Source: an uncultured Gammaproteobacteria bacterium | GTDB taxonomy: Bacteria; Pseudomonadota; Gammaproteobacteria; UBA4575 | Reading direction: 5' to 3' | DNA length: 64,000 nt | Assembly (NCBI GenBank): GCA_951812785.1 | Contig: OX638335.1 | Location: forward strand, 135,630-199,629 | Shown here: positions 2,992 through 54,168 of the stretch, piece by piece | Layout of the letters: each line of letters opens with the position of its first letter | Position numbering within the stretch: position 1 is the stretch's first letter | Made by a program: the position numbers and the translations under genes | Notes under the pieces: generated by a model | Seen by the model: the letters and a program-made list of their open reading frames with translations, nothing else | Database searches by the model: none | What the model was told of the DNA's origin: nothing

Positions 2992-4506
2992 TCAACTTTT
3001 TAATAAACGATCAAACTGCCGATAAGAAAGCGCTTCGGTTAAATGTTGTTTGTTGACAGTCGTCGATTGTTCTAAATCAGCAATAGTACGTGCAACTTTT
3101 AATATGCGGTGAAATGCGCGTGCACTAATATTTAGTTTATCTAACATGTTTATAAATTTGGTTTGAGTCTCTTTAGATAAACTGCATATTTTTTGTAGCT
3201 CATTTCCAGCTAACAAACCATTTAATTTTTGTTGTCGCTTTATTTGAATGTTACGCGCAGTATTAATGCGTGTTTGTATTTGTTGCCAATTTTCTTTTTG
3301 GCTCTCTTCTTTGTTAAATAGTAAATGGCTGGGTAGTTTGGGAACATTTACCTGTAAGTCAATCCTGTCTAACAAAGGGGCTGAGATTTTATTGTGATAA
3401 CGTCGTAATTGTTCGCTAGAACATTCACATTGTCCATATTCATCAATATCACAGCCTTGCGAACAGGGATTCATCGCGGCGATTAACTGAAAGTGTGCAG
3501 GGAACTCTATTTGTGCGGCGGCGCGTGAAATAGTGATGACACCTGTTTCAATTGGTTCTCGTAGAATTTCTAACGCGCTACGATTGAATTCTGTAAATTC
3601 ATCTAAAAATAAAACGCCATTATGCGCTAAGGATATTTCACCTGGCTTAGGGTTAGAACCGCCACCCGCGAGCCCCATGACTGAAACGGTATGATGCGGA
3701 GCACGAAATGGTCGCGACTGAGGGTGGCGCTGTTGTCCGCTGACGTTGGCGATAGAATAGACACTGCATGTTTCTAGCATTTCAGAGTCATTCAGTGGAG
3801 ACAATAAAGAAGGGAAGCGACTCGCAAGCATGGATTTTCCTGAACCAGGGGAGCCAATCATAAGCACATGGTGCTGCCCGGCAGCTGCTATGCATAAAGC
3901 CCTTTTGGCGTGTTGCTGTCCATAGACATCGGACATTAATGGCGGCGTTAAATCTCTCTGTTCAACGTGTACAACAGGATCAGTCACCAATTTTTTAATA
4001 TTATTTAAATGCGCGCACACATCTAATAAGTGTGATGCGTAAAAGTAACTGTGGTGACTAATTGGAATCAGTTCTTTTTTATTTTCAGAAGAAGTGATTA
4101 ATTTGCTACCGATACATTGACAAGCATGTGCGGCAGGTAAAATACCTATCGTTTTACGTAGTTCACCGCTAAGACTTAATTCACCAAGAAATTCGTAACC
4201 ATGTGTTACATTTTCATTGAGCTGTTTAGAGGCAACAAGTAAGCCAAGTGCAATCGGTAAATCAAATCGACCTCCTTGCTTTGGCAATTCTGCAGGCGCT
4301 AAATTAACGATGATGCGGCGTGCGGGAAATTCGAAGTTAGAATTGATAATGGCAGCACGCACTCTGTCTTTGCTTTCACGCACGGCTGTTTCGGGAAGTC
4401 CAACAATTGAGAAGTTAGGTAAGCCGTTAGACAAATGGACTTCGACAGACACCAGTGGCGCATCCATACCAGTTTGCGCACGACTATATACCGTCGCAAT
4501 TGACAT
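2992..4506 (-). CDS. comM: Mg-chelatase-like AAA+ ATPase YifB/ComM
   Basis: 504-509 aa. N-terminal Lon-protease-like domain, Walker A 'GSPGSGKS', Walker B 'VLFLDEF', C-terminal ComM region. The start is probably the second Met (MSIATVYSR). Confidence 0.85.
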   Translation of the reverse strand: MSIATVYSRAQTGMDAPLVSVEVHLSNGLPNFSIVGLPETAVRESKDRVRAAIINSNFEFPARRIIVNLAPAELPKQGGRFDLPIALGLLVASKQLNENVTHGYEFLGELSLSGELRKTIGILPAAHACQCIGSKLITSSENKKELIPISHHSYFYASHLLDVCAHLNNIKKLVTDPVVHVEQRDLTPPLMSDVYGQQHAKRALCIAAAGQHHVLMIGSPGSGKSMLASRFPSLLSPLNDSEMLETCSVYSIANVSGQQRHPQSRPFRAPHHTVSVMGLAGGGSNPKPGEISLAHNGVLFLDEFTEFNRSALEILREPIETGVITISRAAAQIEFPAHFQLIAAMNPCSQGCDIDEYGQCECSSEQLRRYHNKISAPLLDRIDLQVNVPKLPSHLLFNKEESQKENWQQIQTRINTARNIQIKRQQKLNGLLAGNELQKICSLSKETQTKFINMLDKLNISARAFHRILKVARTIADLEQSTTVNKQHLTEALSYRQFDRLLKS

Positions 4507-44048: not shown

Positions 44049-44124
<76 letters not shown>

Positions 44125-45639: not shown

Positions 45640-46146
45640 ATGCGATATGGTTATGTGCGAACGTCGACTAATAAGCAGCTAACTGACAGGCAAGTGAATG
45701 AGCTTGAAGGTGAATGCGATGAGGTCGTGATTGAAGATGGTGTGTCAGCGTGAAAGAAAAACCGTCCCAAATTCCAAACTTTGCTTTTAAGTTTAAAATC
45801 CGGCGATGAATTTGTTGTCATTGCGTATGACCGCACATTTCGATCAGTAATTGAAGGTTTGCATACTGTAGATGAATTAACAGCACGAGGCGTGATATTA
45901 AAATCACTAACGCAAAAACTTGATGTTACGACACCTGACGGGCGTTTGTTTTTTACTCTGACGATTGCCATTGGTGAATGGGAAGTGAATAATCTGAGTG
46001 CGCGAACAGTCAGCGGCCTAAAGGCCGCTATTCAGCGCGGTGAAAAATTAGGTCGGCCTCGTAATGGTGAAGACCTGCGCCAGCGCAAGAAATACCGTGA
46101 CACTGAATTGACGGTACAAAAAGAGACTATCCGAACAAATGCTTAA
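45640..46146 (+). pseudogene. Small serine recombinase (resolvase/invertase family) with in-frame TGA at ~45748
   Basis: RBS 'aggaga'. 'MRYGYVRTSTNKQ' (catalytic Ser), '...EDGVSA*KKNRPKFQTLL...DEFVVIAYDR...' collinear with Hin/resolvase. The stop replaces a conserved basic residue. Confidence 0.65.
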
Positions 46147-49023: not shown

Positions 49024-50198
49024 TTGGATATAATTTGTTATATGGCAGGTTTTACTAACCATCGTTGGTCTCAAATCTTTGATAAATTAAACAGCAATCC
49101 TAGTAAATTTGGATTACCAGTCCGTAGAAATAAGTCTATTGATCTAGGATCATTTAATGCGCTCAAGCTTGGAGATGTTTCAAATAGCTCAAAAAGATGG
49201 GATTTCCTTACGAGAATAGCTTCAGGATTTGACTTGTTGGCAATTCAAGAGGTTATGGATGATCTTTCTGGTATTCGCCGTCTCCATAAATCTTTAGGTT
49301 CGGGATATAAACTGATTATTTCGGATACCACCGGCGCAGCACCGGGTTCGAGAGGCTTAAAAGAACGTTTGGCTTTTCTTTATCGAACATCTCGGATTGA
49401 GCTAAAAGAACTTGTCTCTGATATCACTTACGATCGCTCAATTATTATTTCTAAGCTCAGAGAAGATATAGATATTTGGAATTCTTTTTTCCAACACATT
49501 GATGATACAAATACTGACAGGGTGAAAAACAAAAGTCACTTGCAGATTTCTCGCTCCCAGAATTTTTAACTTTTATTCGCACTCCTTACTGCGCTTCATT
49601 TTCTATAAAACCAAAAAATAATGCTAAACCGATAGAGTTTCTTGGTGTCACTGCACATACTTTACATGGCAAAAGCAAGAGCGAGCGCACACGTGAATTT
49701 TTTGCATTATTAGAATGGCTAGTACTTAGGGCTAAGTCAGCTAACACAATGTATTTCAAAAATATGATATTGATGGGTGACCCAAATATACGGCTATCTG
49801 ACATTACCCAAACCCTTAATAACTTAAATAGCTCTTTACTCTCGGGTAGAGATGATAGCCAAGTTAATTTCCCATTTTTACATGTTCACCCAGATCAAAG
49901 ATCGCTTTTTGGTACAAATGCCCGAAGCGATGAAACATTTGACCATATTGCTTTCTTTATTGACCGGAATGGACGTCATCTACCATCAACAGGTGACAAT
50001 CGACAAGCAGGTCAACAGGGTCTAAATGACTATGATTTTGGTGTTTTCAATTTTGTTGAACTCATTTCTCAGGCTATTCATAACCTAAGCTTTCACGAGC
50101 TTACAAAGGCTCAGCAAAAGAGTCTTGTCAAAAATACAAAGGCCGACATATCGGACCACTTACCTATATGGGTAAGACTTCCTATTTCTGGGGCCTAA
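49024..50198 (+). CDS. Endonuclease/exonuclease/phosphatase (EEP) family protein, frameshifted at an A-run ~49530
   Basis: N-terminal 'FDLLAIQEV' and C-terminal 'SDHLPIWVRL' EEP motifs. The middle ('NAKPIEFLGVTAHTLHGK') is open in the second frame from 49515. Confidence 0.55.
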
Positions 50199-50329
50199 CC
50201 ACTCCTGCCAATATCTTTGGTGCAATACTAAATGCAGTTGCAATACAATGAAATTCACTTCACGCTTCACGCAAGCTGTGCTTTGTAATACCACTCAAAA
50301 ATTTAAACAATTTTTGGTGATTACAAAGC

Positions 50330-50650
50330 GCTTGGCAAGCAAAACCCGCTGCGCGTTTTGCGTTGCATCATTTCCGGCTTATGGCTTAGTTCGGCATCAA
50401 GCCTTCTTGCGCCAGCTATATCAAATTCCACGTTTACCCAAGTAGTTTGGATAAACATGCAATTCGATATAGAAAAAACTCTCTCGGCGAGGCCAAGGGT
50501 TCCATGCGACAGTGCGCCCTACGGGCTTTGCTTTGCATGGATACCATGCTCTTAATTTTGGATCGCTTCCCGATGGGTCAAGGGGCCGAGTTCTCGCCAA
50601 AGGCTGCGAGCCGCACCAACCCCTTGACCCATCTTGTAGCAAGGAATTTG
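50330..50650. other. GC-rich (~52%), highly self-complementary element within an AT-rich island; candidate structured RNA or relic
   Basis: Perfect 14-bp inverted repeat 'gatgggtcaagggg...ccccttgacccatc' (50581-50632) enclosing two mini-hairpins. Further stems: 'ccatgc...gcatgg' and 'gcaaaac...gttttgc'. No convincing coding frame. Confidence 0.3.
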
Positions 50651-50780
50651 GTTAAATCCCAGATTATTAACCTGAGAATTCTCGAAAATCGTCGATAAAC
50701 CTATGAATTTTATCTATTTTGCGCTACCTTAGCACTCTGTAACATTTATTGTTATCAGCATACAAAGAGTCAAAACTGTT

Positions 50781-51461
50781 ATGGCAAATTTGCTTAAAAC
50801 ATCTACATTTCTTGGCACGCTCAACGAATTTGAAGAAAAACACGCACCCAAAGAGCTTTACTATGAGGGCGATGCAGATCTTTTACATGAAGGCATAAGA
50901 ATTTCTATAGTCGGTTCTAGAAAAGCATCTGACGAAGGCATTCGCCGAGCACGTAGTTTCGCGACTGCATGTGTAAATCATGATATTACAATTGTGAGTG
51001 GTCTCGCCGATGGTATCGACTCTATTGCTCATGAGACTGCGATTGCACAAAGTGGCAAAACGATAGCAGTTTTAGGTACTCCTTTAGACAAAGCTTACCC
51101 GGCTAAAAATAAAGATTTATTAGAGCGCATAAAGAAAGAGCATCTAGCAATTTCACAGTTTCCTATTGGCTACCCCTTCAAAAAAGAAAACTTCCCAAGA
51201 AGAAATAGGACAATGGCCTTAATTTCAGACGCAACGGTGATAATCGAGGCAGGTGAAAAAAGCGGTACTCGTCACCAAGGCTGGGAAGCACTTCGTTTAG
51301 GCCGTCTTGTATTTATCATGAAAAATATAGTAGATGATGAAAACTTAACATGGCCGAAAGAAATGATTGAATATGGCGCACAGGTATTAAGCCGGGATGA
51401 TATGCCTGATGTTTTTTACGACATTCCAAGTTTTACAGCTGGGGCTTCGGTTGCTTTCTGA
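50781..51461 (+). CDS. shosA: DprA/Smf-like SLOG-domain protein (ShosA-like)
   Basis: DprA Rossmann-domain motifs 'IVGSRKAS', 'IVSGLADGIDSIAHETA', 'TIAVLGTPLDKAYP', 'FPRRNRTMALISDATVIIEAGEKSGT'. It lacks the SAM and winged-helix domains of true DprA. Confidence 0.65.
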   Translation: MANLLKTSTFLGTLNEFEEKHAPKELYYEGDADLLHEGIRISIVGSRKASDEGIRRARSFATACVNHDITIVSGLADGIDSIAHETAIAQSGKTIAVLGTPLDKAYPAKNKDLLERIKKEHLAISQFPIGYPFKKENFPRRNRTMALISDATVIIEAGEKSGTRHQGWEALRLGRLVFIMKNIVDDENLTWPKEMIEYGAQVLSRDDMPDVFYDIPSFTAGASVAF

Positions 51462-52098
51462 AATTGAATACGCAACATTTTGTAATTACTCGCCTAGAGG
51501 TACATCAGATTTATCTATTCACTCTAAAAAAGTTTGTGGGGCATTCAAAAACGGCAACATTGACACTTTAAATTCCACACTACCATACTTTAGTCAGCCA
51601 TCTGCTACTATTCTGTCTGCCTTTCTTAATCCACAAATAACATTAGTGCCAGTTCCCAGAAGTGCTCCATTAACAGATGGTGCCTTATGGCCATCTTTAG
51701 TAATAGCAGAATTCTTACAACGAAACGGATATGGACACGAGGTTTTACTTTGTATTAAAAGAAAAACTGCTGTTAGAAAGTCTTCTAGTTCTGCAAGCGG
51801 CAACAGGCCAGAAGTAAGCGAACATTATGAAAGTCTTGAAATAGAGCAACAACTCTTAGTGCCTGATGAGATTACTCTGATTGATGATGTTTTAACTCAA
51901 GGCAGAACAACTATTGCTTGCGCCTTAAGACTTGAAGAAGTTTTTCCAATGACAAAAATTCGAATTTTTGCAATGATGAGAACTCAAGGCTTTAAAGATG
52001 ATATTGACGAAATGGTGGAACCTATTTGCAATATTATAAATTATTATGAACCAAGCGGAAAACATATAGAAAAGACGATTAGCCTCATTGCTTTTTAG
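51397..52098 (+). CDS. shosT: Phosphoribosyltransferase-domain protein (ComF-like PRTase; ShosT-like)
   Basis: PRPP-binding motif 'ITLIDDVLTQGRTTIACA'. N-terminal Cys/His-containing segment. Overlaps the upstream gene by ~50-65 nt. Confidence 0.6.
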   Translation: MICLMFFTTFQVLQLGLRLLSEIEYATFCNYSPRGTSDLSIHSKKVCGAFKNGNIDTLNSTLPYFSQPSATILSAFLNPQITLVPVPRSAPLTDGALWPSLVIAEFLQRNGYGHEVLLCIKRKTAVRKSSSSASGNRPEVSEHYESLEIEQQLLVPDEITLIDDVLTQGRTTIACALRLEEVFPMTKIRIFAMMRTQGFKDDIDEMVEPICNIINYYEPSGKHIEKTISLIAF

Positions 52099-53335
52099 AA
52101 AAATTAGAGAACATAAAAAACATGCTCTTTTGACTATTTAGCTTCAACGTATCGCTTGGTTTAATTGTGTTAGCCTGTCTACGCTTTCCACCTGCTTCTG
52201 TAATAACCTCCATATCTGGGTTCTCAATAATCATTTCATGAATATCATCGCTATGAGCAGGTGTTTTACTATATGCTGTCGCATAAAAATCTTGGACTAA
52301 CAAAGCATCCCCAGATTCCGCAATAAACCTTGGAATATCATCGTATAAGTTTTCTTTAGCAGATTGTCGTGAATCATCATCAAATAAATACAACATGCCT
52401 TCCTCTTTGGGATCGTAAGAAAGCATATGCAAACCTGCGCGACCAAAGTGAGCCTGCGGCAAAGCATTTCTATGAAGAATATCGTTATAAGCTTGTCTTG
52501 CACGATATCTATTTGCAAAATGCATAAACCAGTATCGCCAACCCTTAGGATTCTTAATTGAGAATGGGCTTACATAAGACGCGCAATCTTCTAAATGCAT
52601 ATAAACAATTTTTTCAGCTTCCCCCATCCATTGCTTCTTTTCTAAGAGATTGGCATCAGATAACAAAGCATCAATTTTGGTTTTTACTTCTGGTTCTAGA
52701 GGCACACCAGATGCTTCTTTCTTTTGTGATAGAAATGTAAGCATGCTGCTAATCATGAACGTAAGCAGTATTTCTGCTGAATCCCATGACTTCATAATAT
52801 CTTTTATAATGTCAGTAGAAACAAGTGAATACCCGCATTGATCTAAATTAAAAAGCACATTGCTACATCTAGCAGAAAGCAATTTCTGTTTTACTTGAGG
52901 GTAGAGCAGTTCAAATTTTGAGTTAAAAAACTCTAATTCAACATATAGATTTTCGTTCTCATCTTTGATCGCTGCTAGGAAGGGGGCAGTGTTAGCGCGA
53001 AGCAGTTCTATAGCTTGTTTATTCTCGTCATTTAATATTAGCAAACATTCAATTTGAATAGGACGAATGCCTTGAGATTGCCGATGTAGGTTTATCTCTT
53101 TTGTTGTATTTTTTAAAACATCTAAAAATATAAGTGGTGAACCAAAACTGTTGCACTTATACAATCCCGCGCCACAAAACCCATCTACAATTGCCAATCT
53201 AAATTTTTCTCTCTTTGGCAGTTGGCATCTAATAATTAAGTATTCTCTAAAATATTGCGCAAGAATTTTATGCTTTTTCTTTGTATGATCTTTGAGTTCG
53301 GGACCATGTTCCCAATCATAATTTTTTGTCTCCAT
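52085..53335 (-). CDS. tcmP: Three-Cys-motif partner protein (TcmP-like)
   Basis: 416 aa. Immediately downstream of and co-directional with the three-Cys-motif gene. Family recalled from memory, not confirmed by search. Confidence 0.5.
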   Translation of the reverse strand: METKNYDWEHGPELKDHTKKKHKILAQYFREYLIIRCQLPKREKFRLAIVDGFCGAGLYKCNSFGSPLIFLDVLKNTTKEINLHRQSQGIRPIQIECLLILNDENKQAIELLRANTAPFLAAIKDENENLYVELEFFNSKFELLYPQVKQKLLSARCSNVLFNLDQCGYSLVSTDIIKDIMKSWDSAEILLTFMISSMLTFLSQKKEASGVPLEPEVKTKIDALLSDANLLEKKQWMGEAEKIVYMHLEDCASYVSPFSIKNPKGWRYWFMHFANRYRARQAYNDILHRNALPQAHFGRAGLHMLSYDPKEEGMLYLFDDDSRQSAKENLYDDIPRFIAESGDALLVQDFYATAYSKTPAHSDDIHEMIIENPDMEVITEAGGKRRQANTIKPSDTLKLNSQKSMFFMFSNFSKKQ

Positions 53336-53352
53336 GCTTTGTAGTCCCCCAA

Positions 53353-54168
53353 CTATGCAACACGATTTTCAACTATAGGCATTTCATCCCAAGTTCTCCC
53401 TCTATATTCACGTCCATTCGCTTTTTTAGAACGCTTTTGATTATCTTTGCCCCACGCGCCCCATTGTTTGAAGAAAAAAGCTGTTTTATATTTTAAACAT
53501 TGTCTATGAATTTGATCGATCCATTCTTCTTTTATTGGCCTTGCCTTATATCCACTCTCACCCCCAACAATTGCCCAGTGAATTTTATTAAGATTTACGG
53601 CACTAACTTTATCTATTAGTGGCTCAAAGGAAATAAAACGAATTGCAGCTGGTGTTTTACGTAAACAGTTAATTCTATTCGCAGCATCAGCATTTTCGAC
53701 ACTAGTGCCTAACCATACATTGGGCAGCACCAATTTAATCTTATTTGAGACCAGTTCTTTCATGCGCTCAGGGCGTTTAGTTAGAATCTGGTAGTTATGC
53801 TGCGGTGTTTCTTGCATGACACGCCACACTGATATCACAAACTCATCACTAACTTTCTCATGAAACAGATCACTCATTGAATTCACAAATATTTTGCGAG
53901 GCTTTTTCCACTTATACGGAATCAGTAGTGACGCTTCATCTTCTCTGACAACACCATTCCAAGTGACGTTTCCCCCTTTTTTTTGTGTAAGCCCTTTATA
54001 TTTATTAACCCCCATTGCTTCTAATCTTCGCGCCATCTGCATGGCATAGCAGTGCTTACAACCAGCGCTGGCTAGAGAACAACCTGCTACAGGATTCCAA
54101 GTCGCATCTGTCCATTCAATTTGTGTTTCTGCCATTTTATTCTCAAACGAGCCTACAATTAGACGCAA
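53353..54168 (-). CDS. Three-Cys-motif protein, phage Gp37/Gp68 family (DUF5131)
   Basis: 'WNPVAGCSLASAGCKHCYA' Cys triad near the N-terminus; '...WAIVGGESG...' Gp37/Gp68-like core. Confidence 0.6.
   Translation of the reverse strand: MRLIVGSFENKMAETQIEWTDATWNPVAGCSLASAGCKHCYAMQMARRLEAMGVNKYKGLTQKKGGNVTWNGVVREDEASLLIPYKWKKPRKIFVNSMSDLFHEKVSDEFVISVWRVMQETPQHNYQILTKRPERMKELVSNKIKLVLPNVWLGTSVENADAANRINCLRKTPAAIRFISFEPLIDKVSAVNLNKIHWAIVGGESGYKARPIKEEWIDQIHRQCLKYKTAFFFKQWGAWGKDNQKRSKKANGREYRGRTWDEMPIVENRVA

Follow-up and report, generated by a model that had tools for sequence, protein, structure and literature searches.

Between a split EEP-like gene and the defence gene shosA, the 64,000-nt stretch of DNA from an uncultured gammaproteobacterium (lineage UBA4575) analysed here (contig OX638335.1 of assembly GCA_951812785.1, forward-strand positions 135,630 to 199,629; hereafter the window, numbered from its first letter) contains a GC-rich spacer, 50330–50650, that is rich in palindromes. 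What is this spacer, and does it belong to the defence genes at its side? In an earlier note, made from the letters of the window, it had been suggested to be a structured non-coding RNA (ncRNA) linked to the adjacent cassette, a recombination site, or a relic of high-GC foreign DNA. Comparative analysis showed that it is assembled, mosaic-like, from portable non-coding modules that stem from the backbones of mobile elements, and that it forms the junction of two conserved, apparently undescribed structured modules, one of which is common to the origin region of plasmid pBBR1. The left module, on the plus strand, occupies 50270–50420; the right module, comprising the hairpins H3, H2 and H1, lies on the minus strand at ~50473–50645; between them stands an AT-rich hairpin (50416–50472, minus strand), whose arms measure 26 nt and whose loop measures 5 nt. 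The identification of the module families is well supported, and the function of the right module is discussed below with more reserve.

The palindromes of the spacer are real and not an artefact. All stems listed in the earlier note are present in the sequence, i.e., the perfect 14-nt arms at 50572–50585 and 50620–50633 (two matches, as compared to 0.2 by chance), CCATGC/GCATGG at 50502–07 and 50535–40 around GCCC-TAC-GGGC, and the GCAAAAC/GTTTTGC stem at 50339–61; an additional 26-nt inverted repeat (85%; 50416–41/50447–72), absent from that list, forms the AT-rich hairpin. The two mini-hairpins that had been read within the large stem (cgag-tt-ctcg and ggc-tgcga-gcc) exist as sequence, but the comparative data favour an inner helix GCUC/GAAC with a GCC-UUU-GGC hairpin. 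When the 341-nt segment 50320–50660 was folded against dinucleotide shuffles, energies of –119 kcal/mol (z –4.05) and –147 kcal/mol (z –8.9) were obtained for the plus and the minus strand, respectively, both strands being more stable than the shuffled controls and the effect being much stronger for the minus strand. The contrast in GC content is real but smaller than the ~52% versus ~33% previously stated: the spacer has 51.1% GC, the surrounding island (44.2–54.2 kb) 38.2%, and the whole window 41.5%, and about 8.5% of all 321-nt segments of the window are as GC-rich as the spacer or more. As had been noted, a sensible open reading frame (ORF) is lacking, since the spacer contains only mutually overlapping ORFs of 45–83 aa. 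A scan of the whole window with Rfam 15 returned tRNA-Phe as the sole family at the gathering threshold; at a permissive threshold, the best match within 50000–51000 was no better than E 1.7, and 15 right-module loci as well as the left-module loci gave nothing at either threshold. A literature search with sequence words of the spacer retrieved unrelated primers only, and exact-protein look-ups of the genes of the window retrieved no record. The proposal that the spacer is structured, conserved and non-coding is borne out, both by the folding energies and by the compensatory base changes in the two families, neither of which corresponds to an Rfam family.

Read along the minus strand of the window, the right module follows the plan of its family, which consists of the sequence-conserved H1, a linker of 20–30 nt, H2, and a CGGCGAG-type motif in the short hairpin H3; H1 is conserved in sequence, and the hairpins that follow keep their structure while their sequences change. 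As a hairpin, H1 of the family measures ~70 nt and has GUCAAGGGG/CCCCUUGAC as its stem, along with two U·G pairs, an inner helix and a mini-hairpin that varies between members. All of these traits are found in the H1 core hairpin of the window (50562–50645), which combines the perfect 14-bp stem and the two invariant U·G pairs with the inner helix GCUC/GAAC and the mini-hairpin GCC-UUU-GGC. H2 (50498–50545) has the stem GGUAUCCAUGC/GCAUGGAACC around the mini-hairpin GCCC-GUA-GGGC. The H3 segment (50473–50497, with the hairpin at 50483–50497) reads CUUGGC-CUC-GCCGAG, followed by AGAG-U6, and is terminator-like; its hairpin, which includes CGCCGAG, is the local form of the CGGCGAG motif. The order H1-H2-H3 was recovered by an automatic scan in 27 of 34 cluster representatives, the remainder having variant motifs, and is also that of the window. 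Covariance model R1, built from 27 relatives with the window left out, gave H1 of the window a score of 71.9 bits (E 4.5e-17) when run on the minus strand and of 17 bits when run on the plus strand; the former score falls inside the range of the plasmid copies, and no other copy was found by this model in the 64 kb. The right module of the window thus belongs, at full length, to a family that is widespread and as yet unnamed. The description of this family also includes a replication-initiator gene or iterons at ~0.4–1.6 kb on the H3 side, which are missing from the window copy. An AT-rich block at 50668–50700, GAGAATTCTCGAAAATCGTCGAT, aligns with GAGAAATTTTCAAAATTGATCGAT beside H1 in pBBR1-like plasmids (alignments A1 and A2), a correspondence we regard as tentative.

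In the alignment of 28 H1 sequences, 99.2% of the cells are paired, and in four pairs both partners have changed. For the basal pair 15-86, C-G, G-C, A-U and U-A are all found; pair 37-68 is U-A in the window alone, and pair 38-67 is U-A in L035 and L075 (L-numbers are the labels of collected loci). These pairing and covariation values were reached by none of 500 shuffles and by no slid register. H2 was present in nearly all cluster representatives examined, with stem sequences that are unrelated between lineages and often with an inner mini-hairpin; in the window, H2 is re-coded to lower GC with its pairing kept. Judged from aligned sequences, compensatory changes support the predicted structures of both the right and the left module. 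Eleven of the 14 pairs of the outer H1 stem never vary, part of this invariance being imposed by the sampling, as the sequences were gathered by exact words and BLAST.

The core hairpin shares 80–87% identity with unannotated intergenic DNA of 64 plasmids, whose hosts belong to Xanthomonas, Pseudomonas, Aeromonas, Klebsiella and Agrobacterium. When one genome per species was scanned for an exact 20-mer, 74 loci with ~67 true copies were obtained; Betaproteobacteria (Bordetella, Achromobacter, Alcaligenes, Thauera) and Pseudomonas account for most of them. Another six copies are located on IMG/VR contigs; a phage genome collection gave zero matches, as did a metagenome scan for the H1 variant specific to the window. 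The relatives lie mostly in DNA of plasmids or integrative and conjugative elements (ICEs) of 60–74% GC. In about 32 loci of ICE-like or small plasmid type, the module is accompanied by virB5 - hypothetical - eexN - virB6 on the minus strand, and the co-oriented virB6 gene ends 80–370 nt before H1 in most of them and ~0.5–1.7 kb before it in a few. The module is also present in RepA_C-type plasmids of 16–19 kb from Agrobacterium and Xanthomonas; the order in pAt3 and pLMG965-1 is repA, direct repeats of 40–51 nt (probable iterons), 0.45–0.6 kb of further sequence, the module, and a convergent virB6. A third type of locus (the L015 group) has a KfrA_N gene on the H1 side; the ORF on the H3 side matched no family. 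Putative Rep proteins of L006 and L015 gave no Pfam or NCBIfam match and so were not counted; wherever a replication gene is recognisable (pBBR1-type Rep or RepA_C-type RepA), it is always situated on the H3 side of the module. No protein is common to all of these contexts, and serine recombinase genes occur in several of the host plasmids.

Some loci contain more than one copy. On pLMG965-1 of Xanthomonas citri (L081), two inverted 208-bp copies of the right module (1156–1363 and 4275–4482; 99.5% identical) bracket the virB6-eexN-hypothetical-virB5 segment, which could be an invertible or exchangeable mating-specificity cassette. In L073 (Crenobacter intestini), two H1 hairpins at 4225–4310 (minus strand) and 4362–4448 (plus strand) are arranged head to head, ~50 nt apart. 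Genes of a RES toxin and an Xre antitoxin lie directly beside the modules in three unrelated loci, to the left of the right module in L021 and L033 and to the left of the left module in L090; this adjacency may be a coincidence or may indicate a shared junction preference.

One of the replicons in which the right module was found is the common cloning replicon pBBR1. Small pBBR1-like plasmids (2.7–3.0 kb) encode a 198-aa helix-turn-helix (HTH) Rep and a Mob_Pre relaxase, and the module is located between rep and mob, ~420–450 nt upstream of rep. Alignment of a Klebsiella pBBR1-like plasmid with an E. coli vector carrying the pBBR1 Rep showed 68% identity over 225 nt, and covariance model R1 matched the pBBR1 vector with E 2.4e-5. 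Because of the alignment with the laboratory plasmid over this region and the match of the model to the vector, the right module is part of what vector maps label "pBBR1 oriV". The oriV region of pBBR1 contains a homologous H1-H2 hairpin array, in common with the window; pBBR1 itself retains only GTCAAGG/CCTTGAC of the H1 stem and has a different interior, and natural pBBR1-like plasmids carry a canonical H1 at the same distance from rep. Unlike the pBBR1 replicon, the window copy is not accompanied by a pBBR1-type rep or mob gene. Among 5,426 complete E. coli genomes and their plasmids, 36 plasmids and no chromosomal place matched the module. In 31 of these cases the match was at 60–80%, with small plasmids of Esc strains among the matches listed, and the one that was inspected is a laboratory construct with the pBBR1 Rep; five plasmids, the inspected one not among them, matched at 90–95%. 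The origin of pBBR1 has been described as poorly characterised (bioRxiv 10.1101/2025.10.16.682956), and its oriT sits in the mob promoter, outside the annotated origin (PMC13436267). Since pBBR1 replicons underlie thousands of broad-host-range constructs, a discrete, conserved hairpin module in their origin region, with further copies in unrelated backbones of plasmids and ICEs from alpha-, beta- and gammaproteobacteria, offers a concrete target; the module could explain part of their host range, copy-number control or establishment after transfer.

The left module represents a conserved hairpin family that is unrelated to the right module. Its order, P0 (CGCAAG(A/C)UG...CUUG), the TTGGCAAG box, the 13-pair hairpin P1 and the CGTTGCATC box, is found in the window as well, where a tail extends to ...TGCGCCAGC. 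P0 is formed on the plus strand by CAAGC (50272–76) and GCTTG (50330–34) and by an inner 10-bp stem (50280–89/50320–29) with an AT mini-hairpin inside; this extra AT-rich hairpin is seen in the window and in L106. P1 (50335–50366, plus strand) includes the GCAAAAC/GTTTTGC stem mentioned above. The left module shows 80% identity over 74 nt to plasmid pRlX4 of Rhizobium ruizarguesonis and also matches R. etli pRsp8C3a; homologues were collected as L090, L106, L139, L155, L182 and L188. A metagenome scan for the left motif returned 120 matches, five of which are true homologues; about 114 were recognised as chance matches by the missing complementary stem, and a match to the core of the motif on a viral contig (L089) proved to be an ordinary terminator. 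In alignment A7 (eight sequences), 97.8% of the P1 cells are paired, with five compensatory pairs and a covariation score reached by 0 of 500 shuffles, and P0 folds in all eight sequences. A varied gene follows 0.2–0.5 kb downstream on the same strand, coding for a DUF3800 protein, a Fic protein, a restriction-endonuclease/helicase-like protein, or an excisionase-like HTH protein together with a helicase-like protein (named by eye from motifs, except for DUF3800, which is annotated in the record); the genes upstream are recombinase-like or TraG-like, again by eye. The left and the right module were not found together elsewhere among the collected loci. In the alphaproteobacterial loci (L004, 4075–4430, and the equivalent regions of L182, L188, L155 and L139), the left module is accompanied by ~300 nt more of conserved non-coding sequence that is absent from the window and comprises a second GCCGTTGCATCAC box, CAGTCAGGG..GCGTTCCTGC repeats and GACCAACC..GGATTGGATG; no Rfam family matched there, and it may represent a larger undescribed element. 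With the left module itself, a second family becomes a candidate for curation as a structured motif.

With respect to the strand on which the right module acts, RNA energy parameters gave a better fold for the minus strand in 30 of the 34 cluster representatives, by –9.4 kcal/mol on average (Wilcoxon p 1.6e-6, the sequences being not fully independent). The length-variable mini-hairpin of H1 ends in a triloop in 20 of 29 scored variants, and triloops of the C(GNA)G type occur 12 times on the minus strand as compared to once on the plus strand; on the minus strand, moreover, the two invariant H1 pairs are U·G. A hallmark of very stable DNA mini-hairpins is reportedly the C(GNA)G triloop, e.g., that of d(GCGAAGC) (Hirao et al.), and RNA hairpins usually favour GNRA or UNCG tetraloops. 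The G·U or G·T wobbles and the GNA triloops thus favour the minus strand, and the GNA triloops lean toward a role of the right module as single-stranded DNA.

We infer that the right module functions in folded, single-stranded form and with one polarity, that of the minus strand of the window, most probably as an accessory single-strand initiation (ssi) signal of the ssi, G-site or single-strand origin (sso) kind. Opening of the duplex at a nearby origin, or entry of a strand into the cell by conjugation, would expose the hairpins; they would persist on DNA coated with SSB, and a host enzyme, i.e., primase, primosome or RNA polymerase, would start the complementary strand at them. The reasons for this reading are that the module is non-coding, contains several hairpins, is strand-specific, is carried as a cassette by unrelated replicons, and lies beside the origin but outside the probable iterons. 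Further reasons are its geometry and a precedent in other small plasmids. By analogy with the G-site of plasmid R1, where the order is repA, oriR, G-site, the fork leaving the origin would have the minus strand as its leading-strand template; ssi and sso signals, moreover, move as cassettes between unrelated replicons. The precedent is provided by pHW126, pIGRK and pIGMS31, which encode an HTH Rep and a pMV158-type Mob and possess a non-essential ssi-like palindrome upstream of rep, the loss of which leads to multimerisation (PMC6854812; bioRxiv 10.1101/2022.12.05.519187). Our tentative preference, held at somewhat less than even chances, is thus to read the right module as a portable element of the ssi/sso kind that assists plasmid replication or establishment in a strand-specific manner. 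The window copy itself probably remained behind from the plasmid or ICE backbone with which ShosTA came into the tRNA-Phe island, because rep and mob genes are absent from the window; regulation of ShosTA is not its role.

Several observations weigh against an ssi-type signal. When DNA energy parameters are used, both strands fold about equally in the window; most H1 pairs never vary, even if this invariance was partly forced by the exact-word searches; no sequence similarity to classical ssi signals was found, and no F, R1, R100, R6K or ColE plasmid of E. coli is among the matches; the window copy has no replication gene nearby; and the orientation relative to relaxase genes is mixed, such as would fit the transferred strand in Mob_Pre plasmids and pAt3 and the opposite in VirD2-like and MOBQ loci, so that there is no support for a general role on the transferred strand. 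Other findings fit an RNA transcribed as the minus strand, which might serve as the leader of the rep mRNA in pBBR1-type plasmids; in ICE-like loci it might form the virB operon's 3' untranslated region (UTR) or terminator, and another possibility is a pre-primer or regulatory RNA running into the origin. H3 can resemble an intrinsic terminator in low-GC members of the family, and H3 plus U-run is terminator-like on the minus strand in the window and, by inspection, in the same arrangement in L082 and L085. The folding preference under RNA parameters (z –8.9 in the window, and the 30 representatives), the two invariant U·G pairs and the co-oriented virB6 upstream of H1 in the 32 loci also agree with transcription of this strand, and in pBBR1 the deletion of the distant mob promoter region lowers the rep transcript ~2^7-fold (log2 about –7; PMC13436267), which fits transcription through the module toward rep. 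Such an RNA is a serious rival, if less probable than not. Against it, no conserved sigma-70-like promoter is found upstream of H1, the loops are mostly GNA triloops and not GNRA or UNCG tetraloops, no Rfam family matches, and the role would have to differ by context, from leader to 3' UTR to antisense of repA. A sigma-70 promoter starting from the TTGAC of H1 was considered for either strand and rejected, as there is no –10 element. We deem it decidedly improbable that the module is a double-stranded DNA site, such as an operator, a cruciform or a site of recombination or inversion, with a protein recognising GTCAAGGGG...CCCCTTGAC. The conservation of the stem in sequence rather than by covariation, the inverted copies flanking virB6-eex-virB5 in pLMG965-1 and the two adjacent inverted copies in L073 would suit such a site, as would the serine recombinase genes of host plasmids, the resolvase fragment in the window (45781–46146) and the recurrence of CCCTTGAC-like words upstream in some loci. 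However, pBBR1-type plasmids encode only Rep and Mob, and no protein is common to all contexts; the strand asymmetry of wobble pairs and GNA loops is unexpected for a duplex, and the length-variable inner hairpins and H2 keep their pairing and not their sequence.

The window copy taken by itself might be an inert relic, backbone DNA decaying after integration. No rep, mob or type IV secretion system (T4SS) gene adjoins it by tblastn, searches of the window with pBBR1-type Rep and RepA proteins gave nothing (on the H3 side there are the left module and the split EEP-like gene), no direct att repeats of the island were detected, the EEP-like gene is split, the resolvase gene is truncated, and the exact window variant is absent from the metagenome scan. 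We nonetheless consider decay improbable, as all three hairpins are intact, the differences of H1 from the consensus are compensatory (C-G to U-A), H2 has retained its pairing at lower GC, and the covariance score lies within the range of the plasmid copies. The earlier suggestion of a relic of high-GC foreign DNA was correct with regard to origin, the relatives being mostly plasmid or ICE DNA of high GC content, but the spacer is not a gene fragment, and its pairing has been kept by compensatory, AT-shifted changes. The other early suggestion, of a structured ncRNA linked to the neighbouring cassette and here read as a component and regulator of ShosTA (or EEP), is largely refuted, and we ascribe a very slight residual probability to it. 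It had in its favour the position of the structure, 130–450 nt upstream of shosA, and the fact that the left module precedes defence-type genes in other elements. However, ShosA, ShosT, the EEP-like, the TcmP-like and the DUF5131 protein are encoded at none of ~75 other right-module loci; the closest ShosA homologues (74–75% identity) have upstream spacers of 116–200 nt that show no similarity to this region and contain neither module, so the expected recurrence next to ShosTA-like pairs in other genomes was not observed; and the strand on which the right module folds is opposite to that of shosA. A linkage of the spacer to ShosTA was rejected on these grounds. A broader view, that both modules are new classes of host-recognised structured elements at backbone-cargo junctions, the right one being a broad-host-range single-strand priming signal or ncRNA that is common to unrelated replicons, pBBR1 among them, and adds to their promiscuity, appears unlikely to us; under it, the paired or inverted copies in pLMG965-1 and L073 and the junction positions would point to the modules as homology or recombination points at which cargo such as ShosTA is swapped.

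For the hairpin between the two modules, no homologue could be found. Of its four non-Watson-Crick positions, three read as G·T on the minus strand and hence as A·C on the other. One arm of this AT-rich hairpin contains a DnaA-box-like 9-mer, TTATCCAAA, at 50445–50453 on the minus strand (read by eye), which we take to be an 8/9 match to the DnaA-box consensus TTATCCACA.

The island that surrounds the spacer adjoins a tRNA-Phe gene (44049–44124, Rfam match). Near its tRNA end, the ORF 45781–46146 codes for a truncated serine recombinase covering only positions 58–144 of the Pfam Resolvase profile. The two EEP-type ORFs (49024–49569 and 49749–50198) correspond weakly to the N- and C-terminal halves of the NCBIfam MnuA membrane nuclease (E 6e-5 and 3e-4), and neither half matches a Pfam family; the EEP-like gene, being split into two ORFs, is probably a pseudogene. 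Beyond the spacer, the defence cluster beside tRNA-Phe (50781–54168) consists of ShosA (50781–51461) and the adjacent ShosT (51397–52098), followed by a convergent pair of genes for a TcmP-like (GMT-wHTH) and a DUF5131 protein (52085–54168, minus strand), which matches the PADLOC candidate systems PDC-M30/M41. ShosA has 226 aa and covers positions 95–287 of the 303 of its PADLOC profile; it looks like a member of a short subfamily, as most of its closest homologues listed are likewise ~226 aa long. For the annotation of such islands, it matters that GC-rich palindromic spacers can be traces of the plasmid backbone by which the cargo arrived, rather than regulators of the defence genes.

The right module was compared with several known classes of sites and signals. 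The oriT of one relaxase family was rejected as an identity, since the module accompanies MOBV, MOBP and MOBQ relaxases in mixed orientation. A Xer (cer/dif) site was rejected likewise; by eye, only GGTGCG resembles a XerC arm, and a XerD arm is lacking. With regard to integron attC sites, no pair of GTTRRRY and RYYYAAC was seen by eye at the stem bases, and there is no integrase nearby. Frpo single-stranded DNA promoters are similar in that they, too, are folded single strands on conjugative or mobilisable elements, and the module has a –35-like TTGAC in a duplex stem; however, Frpo has a –10 at 16–18 nt, an acceptable counterpart of which is missing from the window and the relatives inspected, and the module differs from Frpo also by its mixed orientation to relaxase genes and by the lack of a gene that consistently follows it. 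Like intrinsic terminators and 3' UTRs, both modules are located just downstream of a co-oriented gene in many loci, and P1 and H3 are likewise hairpins before U-rich tracts in some members. Unlike intrinsic terminators, the modules have flanks that are conserved across bacterial classes beyond the stem as well as additional conserved hairpins, and most high-GC members lack a U-tract. The ssi and sso signals, i.e., the R1 G-site, the phiX- and G4-type ssi of F, R6K, R100 and ColE2, ssoA and ssoU, and the palindrome of the pHW126 group, differ in that their RSB or CS-6 motifs are not recognised in the module. Like the module, however, they are non-coding stretches of 150–300 nt with several hairpins and a strand-specific fold, are situated beside a minimal origin and behave as cassettes, and the geometry of rep, probable iterons and module resembles that of repA, oriR and G-site in plasmid R1.

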